Below, in pieces: positions 1 through 28,456 of a stretch of 64,000 nucleotides of DNA. Every line of letters begins with the position of its first letter. The stretch's first letter is position 1. The position numbers and the translations under genes were made by a program. The DNA is from Thermodesulfobacteriota bacterium (lineage in GTDB: Bacteria; Desulfobacterota_D; UBA1144; Nemesobacterales; JAJCZQ01). The notes under the pieces are model-generated. The model made no database searches, had not been told where the DNA came from, and saw nothing but the letters and a program-made list of their open reading frames with translations. The stretch is from positions 32,001-96,000 of the forward strand of contig CBDBDR010000017.1 of assembly GCA_965203965.1 (NCBI GenBank), in the 5' to 3' direction.

Positions 1-1170
1 CTTATGGTTGAAGTATTTGCGGAGTGGTTTTAGTTCTAAATTGCTGATATGTCCTATAAGGTTAGACAAATTTTCAATATTCAATCCCTGAAAACCCCCC
101 GATTGTAATTGTTCGCAAAATTTTTTCAGATAGCTATGTGTATGATTCTTCCTTTCAAGAACGGTTTTGACTTCTTCAAAATACTTGCTGCGATGGCGTC
201 CACCCGACTCAAGTTCGCTATAAATTTTGTGAATGGTAAAAGCAAGATGGTGCAGGTGGGTTTGTATGTTTGGACTCTCAGATTCAGAGTCATAAAATTT
301 AGCATCTTCCATATCAAAGTCTTCGGCATTGAAATTCCAATCTGACTCTTTCAGTTCGTTCTTTTCTTTCAAATCCGGTAAGCTTCCTATAATTTTCTTT
401 GCTGTTTCAGGTTTTTTCTCATTCAAGTATTTGACCATATCAAATTTGGTTTCCGAAAGATTATTGGGTAAACCATGAATTCCGCTTTCTATCCAATTCT
501 TCAATACCCATCTGGGCAATTGCGACAAGTTAACTTTTTTCTCTTCAGGAATATTCTCACCTTTTTCGCGTGTTGAACAATATTTACGCAATTTTTCTGT
601 TTTAGAAATGTAACAAAGCCTTTTACGGATTCTTTGGGGTTCCTGATTGAGGGATTTAAACAAAGGTTTGATTTTGTCTTTCCCTTCATTTGACCACTCA
701 GTCAAAGCATTGGCAAAATCGTAGTCGTTTTCGCTTTCTGCTATCTCTTGCTTCAATTCTTGCTTCAATTTATCGGGCAGTTTACCAAAGGCCTCCCGAG
801 GAAACTTGCTCAATATGTCAGTACTATATTGTTCCGTTAAAAAGTTGAACCCGCGGCGATTGAGTAAAAAACTGATGGTTTGTTGGATGTCTTTGTCCCA
901 AGGCAGTTTGAAATGCTTATACCAAACCAACTTAAACAGCCGCTTTGCCATCTGTCTGCGGTCATACCCACGTTTCTGATGTCGCTTGTCCGTGCGATTA
1001 ACCATCAGGTAGGTGTAACTATTGTTATCCAGTTGATAGACTTTGCCTGTCTTTATTTCCGGCCTCTTGAAAACGTCCAACTCACTCCCCGCAGGATAAT
1101 GAGCAAAATACACGCCGGTGTTTTTGGCGCCGAGGTCAATAGCGATTGGGCTGATGAATTTCTTGTTCAT
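1..1170 (-). CDS. cas9: Type II-B CRISPR-associated endonuclease Cas9 (Csx12/FnCas9-like), N-terminal 390 aa, truncated by window edge
   Basis: Manual translation from ATG at 1170 with no in-frame stop to base 1: MNKKFISPIAIDLGAKNTGVY (RuvC-I, D12), YTYLMVNRTDKRHQKRGYDRRQMAKRLFKLVW (Arg-rich bridge helix), ISFLLNRRGF, DWNFN, THLHHLAF, ELESGGRHRSKYF, LIGHISNLELKPLRKYFN. These blocks match Francisella novicida Cas9 as I recall it. Missed by the ORF track because the stop is outside the window. Confidence 0.96.
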   Translation of the reverse strand, partial: MNKKFISPIAIDLGAKNTGVYFAHYPAGSELDVFKRPEIKTGKVYQLDNNSYTYLMVNRTDKRHQKRGYDRRQMAKRLFKLVWYKHFKLPWDKDIQQTISFLLNRRGFNFLTEQYSTDILSKFPREAFGKLPDKLKQELKQEIAESENDYDFANALTEWSNEGKDKIKPLFKSLNQEPQRIRKRLCYISKTEKLRKYCSTREKGENIPEEKKVNLSQLPRWVLKNWIESGIHGLPNNLSETKFDMVKYLNEKKPETAKKIIGSLPDLKEKNELKESDWNFNAEDFDMEDAKFYDSESESPNIQTHLHHLAFTIHKIYSELESGGRHRSKYFEEVKTVLERKNHTHSYLKKFCEQLQSGGFQGLNIENLSNLIGHISNLELKPLRKYFNHK

Positions 1171-1259
1171 AAAAAATCTCTTTTCACTTTTGTAAAAACA
1201 TAAGGGACTAAGACATCGCCTGTACAGTCCGGTTAATTTATATGGGATAAGAATTTAAT

Positions 1260-1281
1260 TCAAGATTGCAAACAATCTTGA
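1260..1281. repeat. Perfect inverted repeat (9-bp stem, 4-nt loop) upstream of cas9
   Basis: tcaagattg-caaa-caatcttga; a further tcaagatt copy lies near 1386-1393. Confidence 0.6.
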
Positions 1282-1449
1282 TCCGACCATTAAAACTTTC
1301 CTCAAATTCCATAATATAACAATCTAAAGAGACGTCCAGATGGTGAGTTGAACGGTGGTCTGTAGGTGTAAATCTGGGGTTATAATCAAGATTTCATCCA
1401 AACCGTGTCATTAAAAAATAAAGAGAGAGGGTCACACGTTAATATAATT

Positions 1450-2385
1450 TTACTTACTGAATTCGGGTATCACTTCCCTTGCAAACAGTTCAAGAGTTTC
1501 CTTATTCATAACGTCTGAAAAAAAGATCGTGTATTTTGTTATGCCTTTTTCCAGATTGGCTTTTATTTTTTCAATACATTGATCTGGTGTTCCAACTATG
1601 CCCAGTTTTTCCACGTCCCCAAAAAAATTGTATCTGCGTTGAGCTTTTTCAAGTTTTTCTGCAAGTTCATCTTCTTTGTTGACCAGCACACATACGGTTT
1701 GTTGCGATAAACGTATTTCACTGATATCTCTCTTTACATTTTCACAGTGCCGCCTTAATGCGAGATATTTTCTATCAAATTCAAGTGCGTGAGTAGCGGG
1801 GCAGTTCCATTCGTCTGCAACTTCGGCAACAACTTTTAACAGATTATTTTCCCCAGCTCCCCCAACTATAATGGGAACGTGGGGTTTTTGAACGGGTTTG
1901 GGGTTACACAATGCACCTTTTATTTCGTAGTGTTTTCCTTTATAGCTTGCTTCTTCCTCTGTCCATAACAGTTTTAATATATCAACGGACTCCTTGAGCA
2001 TCTCTATTCTGGTTTTTGCATCTGGGAAATCGTAACCGTATGCTTTGAACTCTTCTTCAAACCAACCAGCACCGAGGGCAAATTCAACCCTGCCACCTGA
2101 TATGTTATCAAGAGTTGCCGCCATTTTGGCAAGCAGAGGAGGGTGTCTAAAACTGTTGCATAAAACCATTGTTCCGATCCTGATACGCTCAGTAACTGAA
2201 GAAAGAGCAGACATAAGAGTCCAAGGCTCTAGAATGTCAATACCTATTACGCCCTGCCCGAGAACGTGGTCATAAAACCATACGGAGTCATAGCCTGATT
2301 TTTCACAAAACTTTGCTACTTCCCGTATATCGGGGAAATCAATCTTCTGCTGTCTAAGCATAACTCCAAATTCAACTTTGCTCAT
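1450..2385 (-). CDS. LLM-class (luciferase-like) oxidoreductase, probably F420-dependent
   Basis: WFYDH, EPWTLMSAL, RHPPLLAKMAATLDNISGGR, GAGW, PKPVQKPH motifs. Confidence 0.85.
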   Translation of the reverse strand: MSKVEFGVMLRQQKIDFPDIREVAKFCEKSGYDSVWFYDHVLGQGVIGIDILEPWTLMSALSSVTERIRIGTMVLCNSFRHPPLLAKMAATLDNISGGRVEFALGAGWFEEEFKAYGYDFPDAKTRIEMLKESVDILKLLWTEEEASYKGKHYEIKGALCNPKPVQKPHVPIIVGGAGENNLLKVVAEVADEWNCPATHALEFDRKYLALRRHCENVKRDISEIRLSQQTVCVLVNKEDELAEKLEKAQRRYNFFGDVEKLGIVGTPDQCIEKIKANLEKGITKYTIFFSDVMNKETLELFAREVIPEFSK

Positions 2386-3127: not shown

Positions 3128-4171
3128 GTGCGTAAAGCTACATACAAGAATTCTGGCGTGAACGTTGATGCTGGCAATAAATTTGTGCAGCTTATAAAAC
3201 CGTTAGTTGAATCCACACACAACAAAAACTCCTACACAAAGTTGGGAGGGTTTTCAGGGTCATTTTCTTTACCACGCAAGTATAAAGAGCCTCTGCTTGT
3301 ATCTTCCACCGATGGTGTCGGTACTAAGCTGAAGGTTGCATTTGATACCGGATTGCTTAACACAGTTGGGATAGATCTTGTTGCAATGTCGGTAAACGAT
3401 ATTATTACATCTGGTGCAGAACCGCTTTTTTTTCTTGATTACCTTGCAACTTCCAAATTGATGCCTGATCAACACGTTGAGGTCGTAAAAGGAATTGTGA
3501 ACGGATGTAAGGAGTCTGGGTGTGTACTTTTAGGAGGTGAAACTGCAGAACTACCTGGTTTTTATAAAAAAAATGAGTTTGATCTTGCAGGATTTGCAGT
3601 AGGTATGGTTGAAAAGAGTAGGTTTATTGATGGCAGTAGAGTAAAGCAAGGTGACGTGTTAATAGGTTTAAACTCTTCTGGTCTTCATTCCAATGGCTAC
3701 TCACTTGCAAGGAACGTGTTGTTCAAAAAAGCCCGACTGAAATTAGATCACAAGCCTCGAGGTTTCAGAAAGCCTCTTTACAAAGAGCTTTTGGTACCGA
3801 CGGCAATATACGTCAGACCCGTGCTGGACATTGTAAGCAGATACGAGATAAAGTCCATTGCTCATATTACCGGTGGAGGATTACTTGAGAATATTCCGAG
3901 GGTGATGCCTAAAACTGCAAAGGCAGTAATTGACCAATCTTTGTGGAAGATACCAAAGATAATGGAGTTTATCAAAGAGTTGGGAAATATTGAGCAAGAT
4001 GAGATGTTTAGGACGTTCAACTGTGGTATCGGAATGGTGCTTATAGTATCAGATCATGAGAAAACAAAGGTGTTGAAGAGATTAAGCAAATTAAATCAGG
4101 ACGCTTGCATTATAGGAGAAGTGGTGAAAAATCGTGCAAGGTCTCCACGGATTGATATTTTGGCATGCTGA
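3128..4171 (+). CDS. purM: Phosphoribosylformylglycinamidine cyclo-ligase (AIR synthase)
   Basis: TDGVGTK, GGETAELPG, SGLHSNGYSL, HITGGG, TFNCGIG. Confidence 0.97.
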   Translation: MRKATYKNSGVNVDAGNKFVQLIKPLVESTHNKNSYTKLGGFSGSFSLPRKYKEPLLVSSTDGVGTKLKVAFDTGLLNTVGIDLVAMSVNDIITSGAEPLFFLDYLATSKLMPDQHVEVVKGIVNGCKESGCVLLGGETAELPGFYKKNEFDLAGFAVGMVEKSRFIDGSRVKQGDVLIGLNSSGLHSNGYSLARNVLFKKARLKLDHKPRGFRKPLYKELLVPTAIYVRPVLDIVSRYEIKSIAHITGGGLLENIPRVMPKTAKAVIDQSLWKIPKIMEFIKELGNIEQDEMFRTFNCGIGMVLIVSDHEKTKVLKRLSKLNQDACIIGEVVKNRARSPRIDILAC

Positions 4172-5080
4172 TTACCATAAATAGAAAGATCCTGATAAGC
4201 GATATTCAAAAGAGGCTTTAAAGTGAAGTTTTTCCATTCCGTTCCAGCTTTTTGGGAAGGGGTGATAGAGGGATGCTACCTTTATTGCTCGTTTGGCTTC
4301 GTTGTCAAGGGAATCGTATCCCGAAGACTGTAAGATCTTCAAATCCTCCAGTTCGCCGTTCTTTGATATTGTGAAGATTACGTTCAGTGTTCCATACTCT
4401 CTCCTTATTATTGCTTCTTTTGGATAATGCCATACGCCTTCAATCTGCTTTTTTACTCCAATGAAATACGAATGGTATTTATAGTGAGTTGTGTTCAGAT
4501 CAACTGTGTCTTCTCTATTTTCAAGATGTCTTGCACCTAATTCCGGTTGTTGGGAAGGGATAGATCCAGGTGTTTTGCGGGCAATTTTCTCTTCGGTCTC
4601 GACTGTGTTCTTTTTTGGTATTTCTTCCGTTATTTTAGTTTCATTCCTCAACCACTTCTGTTTTGGAAGGGATGAAAGTACATGTTCCCTTGAAACGTCA
4701 TTGGGTGTTTTTTCGGGATTTTTTATCTGTTTCTTTTCAGGTTGTTTCTTTTGTGTTGCTTTGGTGGGTCTTTTAGAAAGAGCAGGTTTTGACGGGGTAG
4801 TTTTTGATAGTCGGGTAGTTTGGTCAGGAGCAGATTCTTTTTTAGCTTTGTGGTTTTTTTCTGCCAATAGTTTTGAGTCTTTGGGTGGTTCGGTCTCTTC
4901 TTCCTCTAACTCTGTTAATTCAAAGAAATCCGTTTTGGATTTATTTGCAATTTTTGGTTGCAAATCTGGGTAATAGAAAGACAAAACAAATACAAACAGC
5001 AAGTGAATTAAAACAGATATACAAAAAAAGATAAGAGTATCTTTTCTTAATTTTTCACCGTTTCTATAATGCCCATTCAT
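4172..5080 (-). CDS. TonB family energy transducer
   Basis: N-terminal TM with SxxxH, Lys/Pro-rich linker, C-terminal TonB_C (WHYPKEA, SSGYDSLDNEA). Confidence 0.85.
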   Translation of the reverse strand: MNGHYRNGEKLRKDTLIFFCISVLIHLLFVFVLSFYYPDLQPKIANKSKTDFFELTELEEEETEPPKDSKLLAEKNHKAKKESAPDQTTRLSKTTPSKPALSKRPTKATQKKQPEKKQIKNPEKTPNDVSREHVLSSLPKQKWLRNETKITEEIPKKNTVETEEKIARKTPGSIPSQQPELGARHLENREDTVDLNTTHYKYHSYFIGVKKQIEGVWHYPKEAIIRREYGTLNVIFTISKNGELEDLKILQSSGYDSLDNEAKRAIKVASLYHPFPKSWNGMEKLHFKASFEYRLSGSFYLW

Positions 5081-13844: not shown

Positions 13845-14612
13845 GTGAGTTATCTTGACACGGCAATCAAAGCTGCTACTGAGTCGGGTGGTATTTTACT
13901 TGCCAATCTCGGCAAGGCTGAAAAAGTGAATCTGAAGGCGAAAAACGATCTTGTAACGGAGATTGATTTGTTGTCTGAAAACTTGATAGTTGATCTGATA
14001 GTATCCAGTTACCCGACGCATTGCATACTTGCAGAAGAAGGCGGTCAGTCGGACAATAGTTCTGATTACAAGTGGTTGATTGATCCGCTTGACGGGACTA
14101 TGAACTATGCTCATTCGTACCCTTTTTTCTCCGTGTCCATTGCCATGGAGTATAAAGGCAAGGTTATACTTGGAGTGGTTTATGACCCTATCAAAGATGA
14201 AATGTTCAGTGCCGAAGTGGGTAAAGGTGCTTTTCTAAACGGGAACTTGATAAAACCATCTGGTGCCGACAAGTTGGAAAACAGTTTGCTTGCCACGGGA
14301 TTTTTACATGAAGATGAAAGGCTTGTGGAGATGAATCTGGTGAATTTTTGCAAATTTATCCGAGGTGCGAGAGGTGTGCGAAGGGACGGCTCGGCGGCGC
14401 TTGATCTGTGTTACGTTGCATGCGGAAGATACGATGGTTTTTGGGAGCTTGGACTTCACCCATGGGATACTGCGGCAGGTGCTTTCATTATTAAGGAGTC
14501 GGGTGGATTTGTTACAAATATCTCCGGCGGCGACTTTACGGATTATAAAGGTGAAATACTTGCATCCAACGGATTGATACACAAACGGATGGTTGAAGTA
14601 TTATCTTACTGA
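13845..14612 (+). CDS. suhB: Inositol monophosphatase family protein
   Basis: WLIDPLDGTMNY, GSAALDLCYVACGR, PWDTAAG. Confidence 0.9.
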   Translation: MSYLDTAIKAATESGGILLANLGKAEKVNLKAKNDLVTEIDLLSENLIVDLIVSSYPTHCILAEEGGQSDNSSDYKWLIDPLDGTMNYAHSYPFFSVSIAMEYKGKVILGVVYDPIKDEMFSAEVGKGAFLNGNLIKPSGADKLENSLLATGFLHEDERLVEMNLVNFCKFIRGARGVRRDGSAALDLCYVACGRYDGFWELGLHPWDTAAGAFIIKESGGFVTNISGGDFTDYKGEILASNGLIHKRMVEVLSY

Positions 14613-23627: not shown

Positions 23628-25856
23628 ATGACAAAATCTTTGGTAATTGTTGAGTCACCCTCAAAAGCCCGTACAATAAGCAGATACCTTGGGAAAAATT
23701 ATCAGGTGGAAGCTTCAGTGGGTCACGTTGTTGACCTGTCCGATAAAACCCACAATAAGATGGGTGTTGACATAGAGAATGATTTTCAGCCGGACTACGA
23801 AGTTATAAAAGGCAAAAGTAAGGTTTTAAATGCTCTTCGTAAGTCTGCCGTGAAAAAAGATAGAGTGTACCTTGCAACCGATCCAGACAGGGAAGGGGAA
23901 GCCATAGCATGGCATATTTCCGATCAATTAGATCTGGGTGAGAAGGCACGACGCGTTCTAATATGGGAAATAACGAGGGAGGGCGTTCTTGAGACATTCA
24001 AAAATTCCGGGAAGTTAAACAGAGCAAAATTTGAAGCCCAGCAGGCGAGGCGAATTCTGGACAGGATAGTTGGTTACAAAATAAGTCCCCTTTTATGGAA
24101 AAAGATAGGAGGTAGGCTCAGTGCAGGAAGGGTTCAAAGTGTTGCTCTTGGGTTTGTAGTTAGCAGGGAGCGGGAAATAGAGGCATTTAAGCCACGCGAA
24201 TACTGGAAGTTGCAAGCACGTCTGCTAACTCAGAAAAATGAATCTTTTTCCTCTTATTTGAAAAGTTTTGGGAATTATAAGGATGAACTTCCGACCGGTG
24301 ATCATACCACGGAGATAGTAGATGCTTTGAAAAATGAGCAATTCCAGGTTGTAGAAGTTGAAAAGAAAAAACAGACCCGTAAGGTTCCATCTCCTTTTAT
24401 CACAAGCACGCTTCAGCGTGAGTCATCAACCAAACTCGGATTTTCAGTTAAAAAAACAATGAACCTGGCACAAAAACTCTATGAAGGCGTTGAACTTGGA
24501 AATCAGGGACCGGTTGGGCTTATAACCTATATGAGAACGGATTCCACTCGTCTTTCTTCACGTGCTGTTGAGGAAGCCCGCAAGTTCATTGAGAACAGAT
24601 GGGGGAAAGATCACCTTCCCTCCAAGCCTCCCGTTCAGAAGATAAAAAAAGATGCCCAGGATGCCCATGAAGCTATAAGAGTGACCTCGGTGGAGAGAAT
24701 CCCGCAAGACGTCTCCAAATTCCTGGAAAAAGATCAGGCAAAACTTTACGAACTGATATGGAGAAGATTTATTGCTTCCCAAATGAGTGCTGCAATTGAT
24801 GAGCGGACAACCGTGAATATAAAGGCTGGTGAAGGGATTTTTCGTGCAGTTGGCACGGTTCCTGTTTTTCCGGGATGGAGAGAAGTCATTCCATTGCCTA
24901 AATCTGATGAAAAAGAAAATGAAACAGTTCTTCCATTGCTTGTGGAAGGTGAAGACGTGAGTTGTGAGGAGTTAATACCATCACAGCATTTTACAAAGCC
25001 ACCACCTCGCTACAACGAGGCATCGTTGGTAAAAGAACTTGAGGAAAAAGGCATCGGAAGACCTTCAACTTATGCTTCAATACTTTCCACTATACAGGAA
25101 AGGGAATACGTGAAAGCGGAGAAAAAGGCACTTTTTCCAACACCCCTCGGAATTTCCGTGAATGATTGTCTTGTGAAAAATTTCCCCAATATAATGGATG
25201 AGACCTTTACTGCATCGGTTGAAGAAAATCTTGACAAGGTTGAGCAGGGAAATGAAAAGTGGAGCAGTTTGCTGAGCAATTTTTATTTTGATGAGGAAAA
25301 GGGATTAAAAAGGCGACTGGAAGCTGCGGAAAAATCCTTGAACTTAATAGAAAGAACAGATATTTCTTGTGATAAATGTGGCAAGCCCATGGTAATCAAG
25401 CAAAGACGCCGAGGTAGGGGAGAGTTCCTATCCTGTTCCGGTTATCCAGAGTGTAAAAACGCATCTGATTTTGAGAGAGATGGGGGTGTTATTAAACTGA
25501 AAAAAACCCCAGAGCCGCAGTCTACCGGTATTAAGTGTGAAAAATGCGGTGAAGAGATGATCATAAGGACTCGCCGTCGTGATGGGGTAGAATTTCTTGC
25601 CTGTTCAGCCTATCCAAAATGTAAAAACGCATCTGATTTTGAGAGAGACGGGGGTGTTATTAAACTGAAGAAAGCCCCAGAGCCGCAGTCTACCGGTATT
25701 AAGTGTGAAAAATGCGGTGAAGAGATGATCATAAGGACTCGCCGTCGTGATGGGGTAGAATTTCTTGCCTGTTCAGCTTATCCAAAATGTAAAAATGCCG
25801 CTAACTTTGAGAGAGACGGAAACGTTATCAAACTAAATAAGCCGCGTGCTTCTTAA
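23628..25856 (+). CDS. topA: DNA topoisomerase I with three C-terminal zinc ribbons
   Basis: LVIVESP, ATDPDREGE, SAGRVQS, ITYMRTDS, GIGRPST; ATG 23628 follows ggagga RBS. Confidence 0.97.
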   Translation: MTKSLVIVESPSKARTISRYLGKNYQVEASVGHVVDLSDKTHNKMGVDIENDFQPDYEVIKGKSKVLNALRKSAVKKDRVYLATDPDREGEAIAWHISDQLDLGEKARRVLIWEITREGVLETFKNSGKLNRAKFEAQQARRILDRIVGYKISPLLWKKIGGRLSAGRVQSVALGFVVSREREIEAFKPREYWKLQARLLTQKNESFSSYLKSFGNYKDELPTGDHTTEIVDALKNEQFQVVEVEKKKQTRKVPSPFITSTLQRESSTKLGFSVKKTMNLAQKLYEGVELGNQGPVGLITYMRTDSTRLSSRAVEEARKFIENRWGKDHLPSKPPVQKIKKDAQDAHEAIRVTSVERIPQDVSKFLEKDQAKLYELIWRRFIASQMSAAIDERTTVNIKAGEGIFRAVGTVPVFPGWREVIPLPKSDEKENETVLPLLVEGEDVSCEELIPSQHFTKPPPRYNEASLVKELEEKGIGRPSTYASILSTIQEREYVKAEKKALFPTPLGISVNDCLVKNFPNIMDETFTASVEENLDKVEQGNEKWSSLLSNFYFDEEKGLKRRLEAAEKSLNLIERTDISCDKCGKPMVIKQRRRGRGEFLSCSGYPECKNASDFERDGGVIKLKKTPEPQSTGIKCEKCGEEMIIRTRRRDGVEFLACSAYPKCKNASDFERDGGVIKLKKAPEPQSTGIKCEKCGEEMIIRTRRRDGVEFLACSAYPKCKNAANFERDGNVIKLNKPRAS
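25443..25778 (+). repeat. 168-bp near-identical tandem duplication in topA
   Basis: Copies at 25443-25610 and 25611-25778 with about 6 mismatches by eye; partial diverged third copy from 25779. Confidence 0.95.
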
Positions 25857-25975
25857 AAAATTTTCAGTCTGTTCGGTCAACTAATCAACAATATGAAGTA
25901 GGACAAATTCTTAACCCGGTAAGCGTAGATCAGAAGCTTCTGTTTATTTCAATTACCTTGTAAAATTAGGTCCCT

Positions 25976-28456
25976 ATGCCGGACGGTGTTACTACACAGC
26001 TTGACAAATTGGAAAAACCACTGACCTTTGCATCAGGGAATAATTTTTTAAACCTTTCCAGGATTAGGGATATGGAGGCAATAGTGTCTGATATTGTCCT
26101 GAACCTGACGTCGGGTGAAAAGGATCCCGCGATCAGAAATCACCTGCAAAACATAAGAGAAAATTTTAAGGGTTTTGATCTGCTTGAGCAGGAAGCTAAA
26201 AAGCAAGTTATTAGCAATGCGTTAAAAACGTTATCCCGAATGAGATCATTTAACAAAGAAAAAGATAATGTTCCAGGCTTGGTTACGCCTCAATATTGTG
26301 AAGAACGTTCCGGTCTTTCAGGGGTTGAATGTGGAATACGATACTTGAGGGGAGTTGGTGCCAGAATTGCGAGTGTTTTAGCGAAACGAGGGGTTACAAC
26401 GGTTGAAGACTTACTATTTTACTTCCCAAGGAAGTATGAAGACAGGAGAAACGTTCAGCCTATTTTGTCAGTCAAACACAACCATAAATGTATTGTAATT
26501 GGAGTTGTCTTATCAGCAAGACAGATCCGTGCAAGAAAGGGTGGTTTTTTTTATAAAGTTACGATTGCCGATGACACGGGAAAACTTGACCTGATCTGGT
26601 TTAGAGCCAATAGAAGATATATTCAGAACACTTATAGGAAAGGTGTAAAAGTAGTCGTTAGTGGTGAGGTTACGATCGATCGTTATGGTCATTCCCCAAA
26701 GATAATACATCCAAAACCTCAGGATATGGAAATTATAGAAGAGGGGTGGGAGGTTGAGGATCAAACTCATTTTAACAGGATCGTTCCCATATATCCTTTA
26801 ATGGAAGGGTTAGCGCAACGTAGAATAAGATCAATAATTAAAATGGTAATACAAGAATACGCGAGCCGTCTTACCTATTCAGTTCCCGAAAAACTTGTGA
26901 GTAAATTCTCATTGCTTAATTTGCCCGAAGCAATCATAGAGGCTCATTTTCCTGATAAGTTTGAAAAGGTCGTTGATCTTGATGACCCGGGACAGGTCGC
27001 GGGCTCTCTACCTCATAAGACCATAATCTTTTTTGAATTTCTCATGCTTCAGCTTGGGCTTGGACTTAAAAAGCGGAGTATCGTAAAGAAAAAAGGAGTT
27101 TCTTTCAAAAATAACGGGGAAATAGCCAGTCAATTTATAAACAGTTTGCCATTTGGTCTGACAGTTGCCCAGCTCAAAGTGATAGAAGAAATAAAGAATG
27201 ATATGAATTCGGAAACACCAATGAACAGGCTTGTTCAGGGAGACGTTGGGAGTGGTAAGACCATTGTGTCAATAGTATCAATGCTTATTGCGGTGGAGAG
27301 TGGCTATCAATCCGTTCTAATGGCGCCTACGGAGATATTGTGTGAGCAGCATTACAGGTCAATAGTTAATTATCTTAGTGATTTTGATATAAATATTGTT
27401 TTGCTGAAAAGTGCCTTGAACGTTGCTGAAAAACGAAGGGTCATTCAATCTATCAAAAGCGGTGAGTCGCAAATTGTGGTTGGCACACACGCTTTAATAG
27501 AAGATGGAGTTGAGTTCAGCAAGTTGGGACTTGTAGTTATTGATGAGCAACACAGGTTCGGGGTTATGCAGAGAGCAAAATTAATGGATAAAGCCGACAA
27601 TCCAGACGTTCTTGTACTAACTGCAACGCCGATACCAAGAACACTTGCTATTACGGTTTATGGTGATCTGGACACCTCTTTTATTGATGAATTACCCGCG
27701 GGTAGGAAAAAAGTCACAACCCTTCATTACAGGGATAGTGAGAGTAGCAGGTCTGAGCTATACGGACTACTTGAATCTGAATTGAGAGACGGACGACAGG
27801 GATACGTTATATGTCCTTTCATTAATGAATCAGATAATCCGGAACTCAAGCACGTTAAATATATGGGAAGTGTTTACGATGATCTAAAAAGTAATATTTC
27901 TCCCAAATTTGACATTGGTTTGTTGCATGGACAGATGGATTCAGATGAGAAAGAAGAGGTTATGAAGAAATTTTTAGACAATGAGTTCAATATACTGGTT
28001 TCAACCACAGTGATTGAGGTAGGGGTTGACGTGCCAAATGCAACGTTCATGGTAATTGAGAACGCCGAGCGTTACGGTTTGTCGCAACTGCATCAGCTAA
28101 GGGGAAGAATAGGGAGGGCTGAACTGAAATCATTTTGTGTATTGATCTCAAGTAGTTTTGTATCCGAAGACGCTGAAAAGAAGTTGAATATAATGACCGA
28201 AACCTATGATGGTTTTAAGATTGCAGAGACAGATCTACAAATGAGGGGGCCGGGTGATTTCCTCGGGACAAAGCAGTCCGGAATACCGCAATTCAGATTG
28301 GCAAATTTAGTGAGAGACTGGCAACTGCTAAACAAGGCAAGAGATGCAGCCTTTGAACTGCTTGCCGAGGACCCTAATTTGGATAAGTATGATGAACTGA
28401 AAAGATACGTTAAATCCAGATGGGAGAACGTCCTCGGATTTAGGTTAATATCTTGA
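25976..28456 (+). CDS. recG: ATP-dependent DNA helicase RecG (N-terminally extended)
   Basis: QGDVGSGKT, DEQHRFG, TATPIPRT, QLHQLRGRIGR, RGPGDFLGTKQSG. Confidence 0.96.
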   Translation: MPDGVTTQLDKLEKPLTFASGNNFLNLSRIRDMEAIVSDIVLNLTSGEKDPAIRNHLQNIRENFKGFDLLEQEAKKQVISNALKTLSRMRSFNKEKDNVPGLVTPQYCEERSGLSGVECGIRYLRGVGARIASVLAKRGVTTVEDLLFYFPRKYEDRRNVQPILSVKHNHKCIVIGVVLSARQIRARKGGFFYKVTIADDTGKLDLIWFRANRRYIQNTYRKGVKVVVSGEVTIDRYGHSPKIIHPKPQDMEIIEEGWEVEDQTHFNRIVPIYPLMEGLAQRRIRSIIKMVIQEYASRLTYSVPEKLVSKFSLLNLPEAIIEAHFPDKFEKVVDLDDPGQVAGSLPHKTIIFFEFLMLQLGLGLKKRSIVKKKGVSFKNNGEIASQFINSLPFGLTVAQLKVIEEIKNDMNSETPMNRLVQGDVGSGKTIVSIVSMLIAVESGYQSVLMAPTEILCEQHYRSIVNYLSDFDINIVLLKSALNVAEKRRVIQSIKSGESQIVVGTHALIEDGVEFSKLGLVVIDEQHRFGVMQRAKLMDKADNPDVLVLTATPIPRTLAITVYGDLDTSFIDELPAGRKKVTTLHYRDSESSRSELYGLLESELRDGRQGYVICPFINESDNPELKHVKYMGSVYDDLKSNISPKFDIGLLHGQMDSDEKEEVMKKFLDNEFNILVSTTVIEVGVDVPNATFMVIENAERYGLSQLHQLRGRIGRAELKSFCVLISSSFVSEDAEKKLNIMTETYDGFKIAETDLQMRGPGDFLGTKQSGIPQFRLANLVRDWQLLNKARDAAFELLAEDPNLDKYDELKRYVKSRWENVLGFRLIS

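Follow-up and report, generated by a model that had tools for sequence, protein, structure and literature searches.

The question raised by this locus is whether a reading frame cut off by the left edge of the analyzed DNA encodes a type II-B Cas9 that belongs to a functional CRISPR-Cas system and, if so, whether the PAM and the guide requirements of this system differ from those of the Francisella enzyme (FnCas9). The window, i.e., the whole stretch of 64,000 nucleotides that was analyzed, corresponds to C17:32001-96000 (a window coordinate is the coordinate in contig C17 minus 32000), and 32 kb were also fetched leftward. Starting from an ATG at window position 1170, 390 uninterrupted codons are present on the minus strand (window 1-1170). 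The frame is open at the left window edge and carries IAIDLGAKNTG, the Arg-rich RTDKRHQKRGYDRRQMAKRLFKL, SGGRHRSKYF, and LIGHISNLELKPLRKYFN, exactly as the earlier note had described. The 390 residues alone matched PF21069 (Csx12; E = 1.5e-46) and TIGR03031 (cas_csx12; E = 3.2e-52), indicating that the frame is a real gene. Leftward extension, which the earlier note had proposed, gave a full-length cas9 ORF devoid of any early stop. The gene does not appear in the ORF track because the ORF leaves the window and such frames are unlisted by default. The description of this Cas9 as hidden was thus an artifact of the window edge, and an identical protein is already present in NCBI and ENA. The gene and its upstream context are composed of the following features.

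C17:28155-33170 (positions 14155..19170 of L002, the locus segment of contig C17 in which 14155 is C17:28155), minus strand: cas9, type II-B/Csx12, 1671 aa, called from the ORF, protein families, FnCas9 structures, and catalytic columns.
Window 1..1170, minus strand: 5' part of cas9, codons 1 to 390, with 3845 bases of cas9 lying to the left of the window.
Window 1171..1449, minus strand: 279-nt intergenic region between the stop of the upstream ORF and the start of cas9, from the ORF map.
Window 1450..2385, minus strand: LLM-type oxidoreductase-like ORF located upstream of cas9, from the ORF map.

The 279-nt gap presumably contains the promoter and the 5' untranslated region of cas9 and presumably bounds the CRISPR-Cas block on its right-hand side. 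The search for a cas9 promoter on the minus strand of the gap returned two sigma-70-like sites (1411-1382 and 1338-1311), which did not exceed those of shuffled sequences (mean of 1.4), and the promoter was not located.

The full-length protein scored 594.8 bits against TIGR03031, an equivalog model, i.e., 195 bits over the cut-off of 399.4 bits, and the match extended over profile positions 1 to 801 of 802. The PF21069 and PADLOC Cas9b (II-B) profiles scored 393 and 594.8 bits, respectively, and the best matches were to II-B models (TIGR03031 and PADLOC Cas9b). The best structure matches were FnCas9 chains 9ehf, 5b2o, and 9n6t (ca. 1104 bits, residues 4 to 1584); the compact II-B Cas9s 8umf and 9ko9 matched residues 816 to 1498 only (ca. 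181 bits). The TIGR03031 score above the cut-off and the 1104-bit matches to FnCas9 structures confirm the original identification of an FnCas9-like type II-B enzyme. According to passages of Chylinski 2013 (PMC3737331), type II-B is recognized by the combination of a Csx12-like Cas9 with Cas4, and the length of its repeats is 37 nt. All of these are present at the locus, in the form of a Csx12-type Cas9, a cas4 gene together with cas1 and cas2, and 37-nt repeats. For the protein to be another large RuvC/HNH protein, or a Cas9 of another type II subtype, the argument would have to be drawn from the direct PDB alignment, which ends 87 residues before the C terminus, no other support having been found. 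The 195-bit margin over the TIGR03031 cut-off, the presence of Cas4, the length of the repeats, and the Francisella-type tracrRNA (see below) oppose that identity, which was ruled out by the TIGR03031, FnCas9 structure, and PADLOC II-B scores and retains a negligible probability. The protein is an ordinary new orthologue within the known type II-B family.

The 390-aa piece was compared to 1.84 billion proteins grouped in 50%-identity clusters, which led to 296 cluster representatives at E <= 1e-3, including 220 at E <= 1e-10 and 91 at E <= 1e-30; with 90% clustering, 197 proteins were recovered at E <= 1e-3 among 7999 candidates scored. Type II-B had been presented in the earlier note as rare and as found in four genera (Francisella, Legionella, Wolinella, and Parasutterella). 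Its rarity stands, type II-B accounting for ~1% of CRISPR loci in passages of PMC6737040, whereas its restriction does not, since 296 cluster representatives imply a distribution wider than four genera. Among the matches listed, the closest relatives outside the query's own cluster were 64% and 61% identical, and the source names of the relatives also include a Desulfoplanes protein. A first scan of genome contigs for related loci returned one locus, in a Bdellovibrionales MAG (Cas9 relative, 47%).

Conservation of functional residues was assessed in an alignment of 106 sequences, namely, the query and 105 homologues. These were drawn from the 119 listed as P0004 to P0122, 14 having been dropped because their length fell outside the range of 1500 to 1800 aa; P0003, the 99% representative of the cluster to which the query belongs, was excluded. 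The residues are named after the motifs generally described for Cas9 (RuvC-I, RuvC-II, RuvC-III, and HNH). RuvC-I residue D12 is Asp in 103 of the 106 aligned sequences, the other three displaying N-terminal gaps. RuvC-II E932, the HNH residues D987, H988, N1000, and N1004, and RuvC-III H1182 and D1185 are invariant (106/106), and the bridge-helix residues R59, R63, H64, R67, and R71 are kept in 103 sequences out of 106. All of the predicted RuvC and HNH catalytic columns of Cas9 are therefore intact, the RuvC-I Asp noticed from the 5' part being present and the HNH, RuvC-II, and RuvC-III residues having passed the same check.

The REC segment (about aa 120 to 275) had been described in the earlier note as very different from that of FnCas9. 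Conservation is low in this region, since the mean identity of residues 121 to 320 to the 105 relatives is 0.30 to 0.41, versus 0.59 to 0.69 before the segment and 0.62 after it; the C-terminal 400 residues of Cas9 vary more still (0.14 to 0.42). The divergence is real but is found across the whole family, with nothing specific to the protein considered here, and the segment is not a PAM determinant. In FnCas9, the REC3 clamp comprises K788, K789, S792, Y794, and Q798, according to passages of PMC12231574. By-eye mapping from the alignment with the FnCas9 structure placed E827, K828, G833, Y835, and Q839 at the corresponding columns. With this by-eye mapping, the Y835 column (Y794 in FnCas9) contains Tyr in 69 and Phe in 37 of the 106 sequences, the Q839 column (Q798 in FnCas9) contains Gln in 100/106, and the column of FnCas9 S792, occupied by G833 in the Cas9 studied here, is mostly Ala (73/106 relatives).

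The extended contig contains the following features beyond the cas9 stop.

C17 ca. 28063-28158, minus strand: remnant of the 5' end of a second cas1, 31-codon frame VRHLVVDDYGSLLGLDNNSIVVK...
C17:27762-28028, minus strand: DUF2442 gene, 88 aa (PF10387, 41 bits).
C17:26806-27762, minus strand: cas1, 318 aa (TIGR00287, 208 bits; PADLOC Cas1_II, 408 bits end to end).
C17:26494-26796, minus strand: cas2, 100 aa (TIGR01573, 30.7 bits with a cut-off of 24.5; Cas2_II, 99.9 bits).
C17:25929-26504, minus strand: cas4, 191 aa (TIGR00372, 97.4 bits with a cut-off of 65; Cas4_II, 212 bits, positions 1-186/186).
C17 ca. 25795-25932, plus strand, antisense to the cas genes: predicted tracrRNA (anti-repeat at 25798-25827; terminator stem at 25896-25923).
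C17:25487-25669, probable plus strand: CRISPR array with three repeats of 37 nt and two spacers (37 and 35 nt).

The cas1, cas2, and cas4 genes and the CRISPR array, which the earlier note had named as downstream features to look for, were thus all found. The cas9, DUF2442, cas1, cas2, and cas4 genes follow one another in this order on one strand, and the stop of the DUF2442 gene overlaps the start of cas1. The order cas9-cas1-cas2-cas4 was observed in seven of nine related loci, the other two reaching a contig edge before cas4, and none of the nine contains a DUF2442 gene or a cas1 remnant between cas9 and cas1. DUF2442 is single-copy in the genome. The cas1 remnant is located directly past the cas9 stop and shares 13 of 22 residues with the real Cas1 (70% identity over 70 nt). 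The location of the DUF2442 gene and of the cas1 remnant between cas9 and cas1 indicates that the operon was rearranged, the simplest reading being that a past recombination event replaced or rejoined the adaptation module.

The array begins ~260 nt after cas4 and consists of three identical repeats, spaced by 74 and 72 nt, which are the sole copies of this sequence in the 1.99-Mb genome. A conserved block emerged when the gap between cas4 and the array in L002 was compared to those of three related loci (L004, L011, and L012). Its 14-nt scaffold core, AGAGGTCCGYTCAA, has a single copy in the genome and lies just past cas4, on the cas strand, in all six II-B loci that extend beyond cas4. The Rfam family FtrA (RF02747, "Francisella sRNA A"), which we take to be the tracrRNA of F. 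novicida, matched L002 11805-11883 on the plus strand with a score of 46.9 bits; the E value was 1.8e-5 when 1 kb was searched and 0.0011 when 64.6 kb were searched. The FtrA score in L012 was 116.5 bits, both loci being under the Rfam gathering score of 134. In the main texts of the open papers searched, FtrA was never mentioned together with tracrRNA and Francisella, and the sequence of the scaffold core was absent in both its DNA and its RNA spelling.

In the array-bearing loci, the 5' flank of the scaffold is complementary to the repeat of its own locus, with energies of -28.5, -28.2, -25.3, and -21.5 kcal/mol. A compensatory change affects the anti-repeat, the pairing being ACCAGTATAGC:GCTATACTGGT in genome G070 versus ACCAGTATAAC:GTTATACTGGT in the locus considered here. 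The scaffold is followed by a terminator on the plus strand (L002 11896-11923). The 138-nt predicted tracrRNA folds with a z score of -3.8, and covariation, based on five sequences only, showed a conserved hairpin in which 3 of 14 pairs are compensated. No other site of the 19.4-kb locus gives a better duplex than the anti-repeat (-28.5 kcal/mol), but chance sites reach -28.2 kcal/mol. Because the duplex energy does not discriminate the anti-repeat from chance, the tracrRNA call rests on the comparison between loci.

From the homology of the scaffold and the terminator on the plus strand, we infer that the array and the tracrRNA are transcribed in the direction opposite to that of the cas operon. 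The converse arrangement, with an array in the cas direction and an anti-repeat on the cas strand, was rejected, since the scaffold, the FtrA match, and the terminator are on the opposite strand; the anti-repeat candidate on the cas strand (-19.1 kcal/mol) was beaten by chance sites (-24.6 kcal/mol). The predicted orientation fits that of F. novicida, in which transcription of the array runs against that of the cas operon according to passages of Chylinski 2013 (PMC3737331). The idea that the system might have new guide requirements, put forward in the earlier note, finds no support here, the scaffold being conserved and related to Francisella FtrA and the repeat having the 37-nt length typical of II-B.

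Contigs from metatranscriptome libraries X10 and X11 cover L002 11640-11962 and 11647-12122 without any difference, and contigs from libraries X9 to X11 cover parts of cas9, DUF2442/cas1, and cas4. This coverage is compatible with expression of the locus, the contigs being devoid of strand and end information and DNA carry-over being possible. The parts of the locus that are uncovered in the RNA libraries and the break of DNA contigs inside the array are uninformative either way.

We estimate at about 0.88 the probability that the gene encodes a type II-B Cas9 in a complete, apparently functional CRISPR locus, as judged from its sequence. The locus could also be decaying, or have been transferred recently, and have lost immunity, in which case Cas9 would be intact, adaptation would be impaired following the cas9-cas1 rearrangement, and the mini-array would be a relic. 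Such a history would account for the presence of two spacers only, when the arrays of G070, L004, and L011 contain ~43, 9, and 15 repeats, respectively, and for the cas1 5' remnant and the inserted DUF2442 gene, which are seen here and in none of the nine related loci. The lack of protospacers in viral contigs and phage records and the synteny breakpoint relative to genome G001 (both described below) would also be in line with it. However, all five ORFs are full length with profile matches end to end, no catalytic column is altered, the repeat has the same sequence in its three copies, and RNA-library contigs lie over several parts of the locus. In addition, the locus was detected at 0.75 to 0.97 of the sampled words in eight runs from two studies, one of these runs maybe corresponding to the source sample. 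Loss of immunity is for us an improbable reading of the locus, and we retain that of a functional type II-B system.

A different function has also to be considered, since the system might mainly regulate genes, as FnCas9 does with scaRNA, a partly complementary guide repressing a chromosomal gene without cutting. F. novicida provides a precedent, and the REC3 clamp underlying this regulation is described as conserved across II-B in passages of PMC12231574. Of the clamp positions, those of Y835 and Q839 are kept in the Cas9 studied here, and 16 nt of one spacer recur without mismatch in the genome (C5:12332-12347; E = 0.01). That match is nonetheless close to the chance level for two spacers and corresponds to positions 16 to 31 of the spacer in the crRNA orientation (7 to 22 as printed), thereby omitting the repeat-proximal 6 nt, i.e., the Cas9 seed. 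The search of the locus and of the genome for orphan repeat-like (scaRNA-like) elements, whose sensitivity is low for a degenerate scaRNA, was negative, the best off-array matches being 14 to 17 nt in length with E values of at least 0.1. Neither spacer had a significant match in the genome that would reveal self-targeting. We regard it as very improbable that regulation is the main role of the system, and keep an immune function as the preferred reading.

FnCas9 reads the NGG PAM through R1585 (G2) and R1556 (G3), which belong to the C-terminal WED-PI region, according to passages of PMC12231574 and PMC11213958. The column of R1556 is occupied by A1576 in the Cas9 studied here. Among the 106 sequences, this column contains Ala (43 sequences), a gap (38 sequences), or Arg (4 sequences), Ala being the commonest residue. 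Chain 5b2q, presumably the engineered R1556A "RHA" variant of FnCas9, also has Ala at this position. The last ~87 residues of Cas9 could not be aligned to FnCas9, whether directly or with the Cas9 of L012 as a bridge, and attempts to map R1585 by these two routes failed. Of the elements of FnCas9-like NGG reading, the Arg of the R1556 column is thus absent and the tail bearing R1585 is unaligned. The tail contains the motif HGFRK, including R1606, which is conserved in the 14 closest sequences without being so in the full set of 106; as a guess, R1606 could be the counterpart of R1585. Because the R1556 column contains Ala and the C-terminal tail is unaligned, a PAM other than NGG is plausible. 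The R1556A substitution abolishes the activity of FnCas9 unless it is compensated (passages of PMC11213958), and Ala at this column could therefore also result in weak activity; against this reading, Ala occupies the column in 43 of 106 relatives, more often than any other residue.

The earlier note had reached the idea of a new PAM by another route, namely, the divergence of the REC segment. This argument fails because FnCas9 relies on R1585 and R1556, two residues of the WED-PI region, to read its PAM, and the part of the proposal that survives, a plausible difference in PAM, is based on A1576 and on the unaligned tail. Neither spacer finds a protospacer from which the PAM could be deduced. 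Exact searches of viral contigs with the two full spacers and with one 24-nt PAM-proximal part returned no match, and BLAST of the spacers against 50,697 phage records returned partial matches only (E values of at least 1). Taken jointly, the data leave room for a broader proposal, to which we give somewhat less than an even chance: a natural clade of long II-B Cas9s would have kept the fidelity-conferring REC3 clamp, lack the G3-reading Arg, and carry an unrelated tail in which the HGFRK motif is conserved within the clade, and would recognize a non-NGG PAM by undescribed contacts; DUF2442 could, in addition, be a new accessory or regulator of a type II operon rather than a passenger.

The DNA of the locus is present in sponge-metagenome runs, and the closest named homologues of the enolase are from Thermodesulfobacteriota MAGs (81%), followed by Candidatus Dadabacteria (~72%). 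The host looks like a sponge bacterium of the Dadabacteria/Thermodesulfobacteriota type, in agreement with the earlier proposal that this II-B Cas9 occurs in a lineage unlike the four genera cited above. Matches to TIGR03031 above the cut-off were found in none of 40 relatives from the same family or order and in 2 of 120 genomes sampled across the phylum, namely, those of the host and of G070. On the left side of the block, the orf87-eno-leuC segment is syntenic with G001; G002 keeps eno-leuC, with no match to orf87 in the stretch fetched. On the right side, purM is located ~77 kb away in G001, which places the CRISPR-Cas block at a synteny breakpoint; for the same reason, a model involving clean insertion of the block was not supported. 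Composition provided no mark of a foreign origin, the GC content of the cas genes ranging from 37.7 to 42.0% for a genome value of 39.65%.

By homology with FnCas9, the 37-nt repeats of the array transcript would base-pair with the 5'-terminal anti-repeat of the tracrRNA, and Cas9 would bind the crRNA:tracrRNA duplex via the conserved scaffold. The C-terminal WED/PI region of Cas9 would then search DNA for a PAM, and the R-loop would form and be checked by the REC3 clamp prior to cleavage of both strands by the HNH (D987/H988/N1004 motif) and RuvC (D12, E932, H1182, and D1185) sites. Cas1, Cas2, and Cas4 would add spacers. In this scheme, the activity of Cas9, the direction of transcription, and the PAM are predictions of our analysis.

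The value of FnCas9 lies in its high specificity. As an orthologue that is full length and has a probable REC3 clamp, a defined crRNA/tracrRNA pair, and a different PAM-reading region, the Cas9 described here would be a reasonable candidate for PAM profiling, and a different PAM, if true, would extend the range of sites open to high-fidelity II-B editing. The locus also records the lateral spread of type II-B into a sponge-associated lineage of the Dadabacteria/Thermodesulfobacteriota type (2/120 genomes). It leaves the knowledge of how type II-B systems work unchanged, its main practical interest residing in a probable non-NGG PAM in a probably clamp-bearing II-B Cas9.

Among known systems, the compact II-B Cas9s 8UMF (PsCas9 in passages of PMC12231574) and 9KO9/9KOR, which comprise 1435 to 1462 aa, have in common with the Cas9 studied here the nuclease lobe (181 bits, residues 816 to 1498), whereas their REC lobe and tail were unmatched by phmmer. 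The Cas9 of L012, a closer relative of FnCas9 (1812 bits), is 41% identical to the Cas9 studied here. P0004 and P0005 are nearer, with 64% identity by BLASTP (67% over the columns aligned by MAFFT) and 61% identity, respectively, the latter being MDD9806897.1, [quoted passage not shown] Both are full-length proteins of 1675 aa of the same Pfam family, and both share with the Cas9 studied here the C-terminal consensus, Ala at the R1556 column, and HGFRK in the alignment of 14 sequences. G070, which belongs to the same order but to a different family, has the same cas9-cas1-cas2-cas4 order, a tracrRNA scaffold that is antisense and has a matching anti-repeat, and 37-nt repeats. Its Cas9 is 56% identical, compared to 78% for Cas1, 81% for Cas2, and 76% for Cas4. 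Unlike the locus described here, that of G070 contains neither DUF2442 nor the cas1 remnant, has none of the tested flanking genes, and includes a large array (L023 10731-13874).

The comparison with F. novicida reveals both differences and common features. The host is here an environmental bacterium from a different phylum, and scaRNA regulation is known in F. novicida, whereas no scaRNA candidate was found here in the locus or in the genome. FnCas9 R1556 is replaced by Ala, the FnCas9 tail bearing R1585 faces ~87 unalignable terminal residues, and residues 121 to 320 align poorly. A DUF2442 gene between cas9 and cas1 is found here but not in the II-B locus of F. novicida U112, the cas1-cas2-cas4 genes being common to both. 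The two Cas9s are long proteins of the Csx12 type (1629 aa for FnCas9 versus 1671 aa here) with the same catalytic motifs, and the clamp Tyr and Gln are kept according to the by-eye residue mapping. As in F. novicida U112, the repeats are 37 nt in length, the tracrRNA scaffold is FtrA related, and the array and the tracrRNA are predicted to run opposite to the cas operon.

The cas9 gene, encoding a type II-B protein, varies within the population. Comparison of the stretch spanning codons ~84 to 529 with a contig from run X2 revealed 69 differing positions and 14 gaps. A contig from the metatranscriptome library X9 lacked 12 nt at L002 18746 (window 746), where a 12-nt tandem repeat is located, and this deletion is in frame, removing four codons from the variable REC zone. 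(L002 denotes the stretch of contig C17 carrying the CRISPR-Cas block.)

Features of the CRISPR-Cas block on contig C17
C17:25217-25480 (L002 11217-11480), plus strand: orf87, a conserved protein of 87 aa
C17:25487-25669, repeats in crRNA orientation: CRISPR array with a -10-like box inside the repeats
C17:27762-28028 (L002 13762-14028), minus strand: DUF2442 gene (PF10387, 41 bits)
C17:28063-28158 (L002 14063-14158), left of the window, minus strand: 31-codon frame left over from the 5' end of another cas1
Window 584-918, continuing left of the window (L002 17584-18918): varying stretch of cas9

The cas1 remnant begins at the cas9 stop codon, and the start of the real cas1, located 396 nt farther downstream, is 70% identical to it over 70 nt. 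Its presence suggests that the adaptation module was exchanged or rejoined in the past. The DUF2442 gene lies between cas9 and cas1, with its stop codon overlapping the cas1 start. This gene is present in a single copy in the genome, is covered by RNA-library contigs, and was absent from all nine related II-B loci in which it was sought. DUF2442 and CRISPR occur together in the texts of four of the papers searched, with no pairing of the two in a title or abstract.

The left border of the block is marked by orf87, which had no match in Pfam, NCBIfam, or PADLOC. In the genome G001, orf87 is 76% identical over 59 residues and also adjoins eno. Only 6 nt separate the end of orf87 from the array's outermost repeat, too little space for a leader promoter at that position. 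Repeat-internal promoters have been reported for type II-C systems. Inspection by eye of the repeats in crRNA orientation revealed a -10-like box, TATACT, in the C17 array and in the II-B loci L004 and L023, and TGGTATAAT in the related locus L012. Promoters inside the repeats are a possibility. Positions 7 to 22 of the 37-nt spacer, counted against the crRNA orientation, matched 16 nt exactly at C5:12332-12347 of the same genome (E = 0.01). This match corresponds to positions 16 to 31 in crRNA orientation and therefore leaves the repeat-proximal 6 nt outside; it is probably due to chance.

Features of related II-B loci
L011 4150-4345 (metagenome locus): tracrRNA scaffold core duplicated in tandem, at 4165-4178 and 4284-4297
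L023 13908-14000 (genome G070): degenerate repeats at the cas-distal end of a large array

The array-nearer scaffold copy of L011 is associated with a weak anti-repeat only (-16.3 versus -25.3 kcal/mol) and may specify an additional tracrRNA-like RNA that has a different partner. If the G070 array were read antisense, its degenerate, cas-distal end would be the transcription start side. According to Chylinski 2013 (PMC3737331), repeat decay and the measured direction of transcription are likewise mismatched in N. meningitidis as well as in C. jejuni. The G070 array, if antisense, would display the same mismatch between decay and direction as the arrays of these two species.
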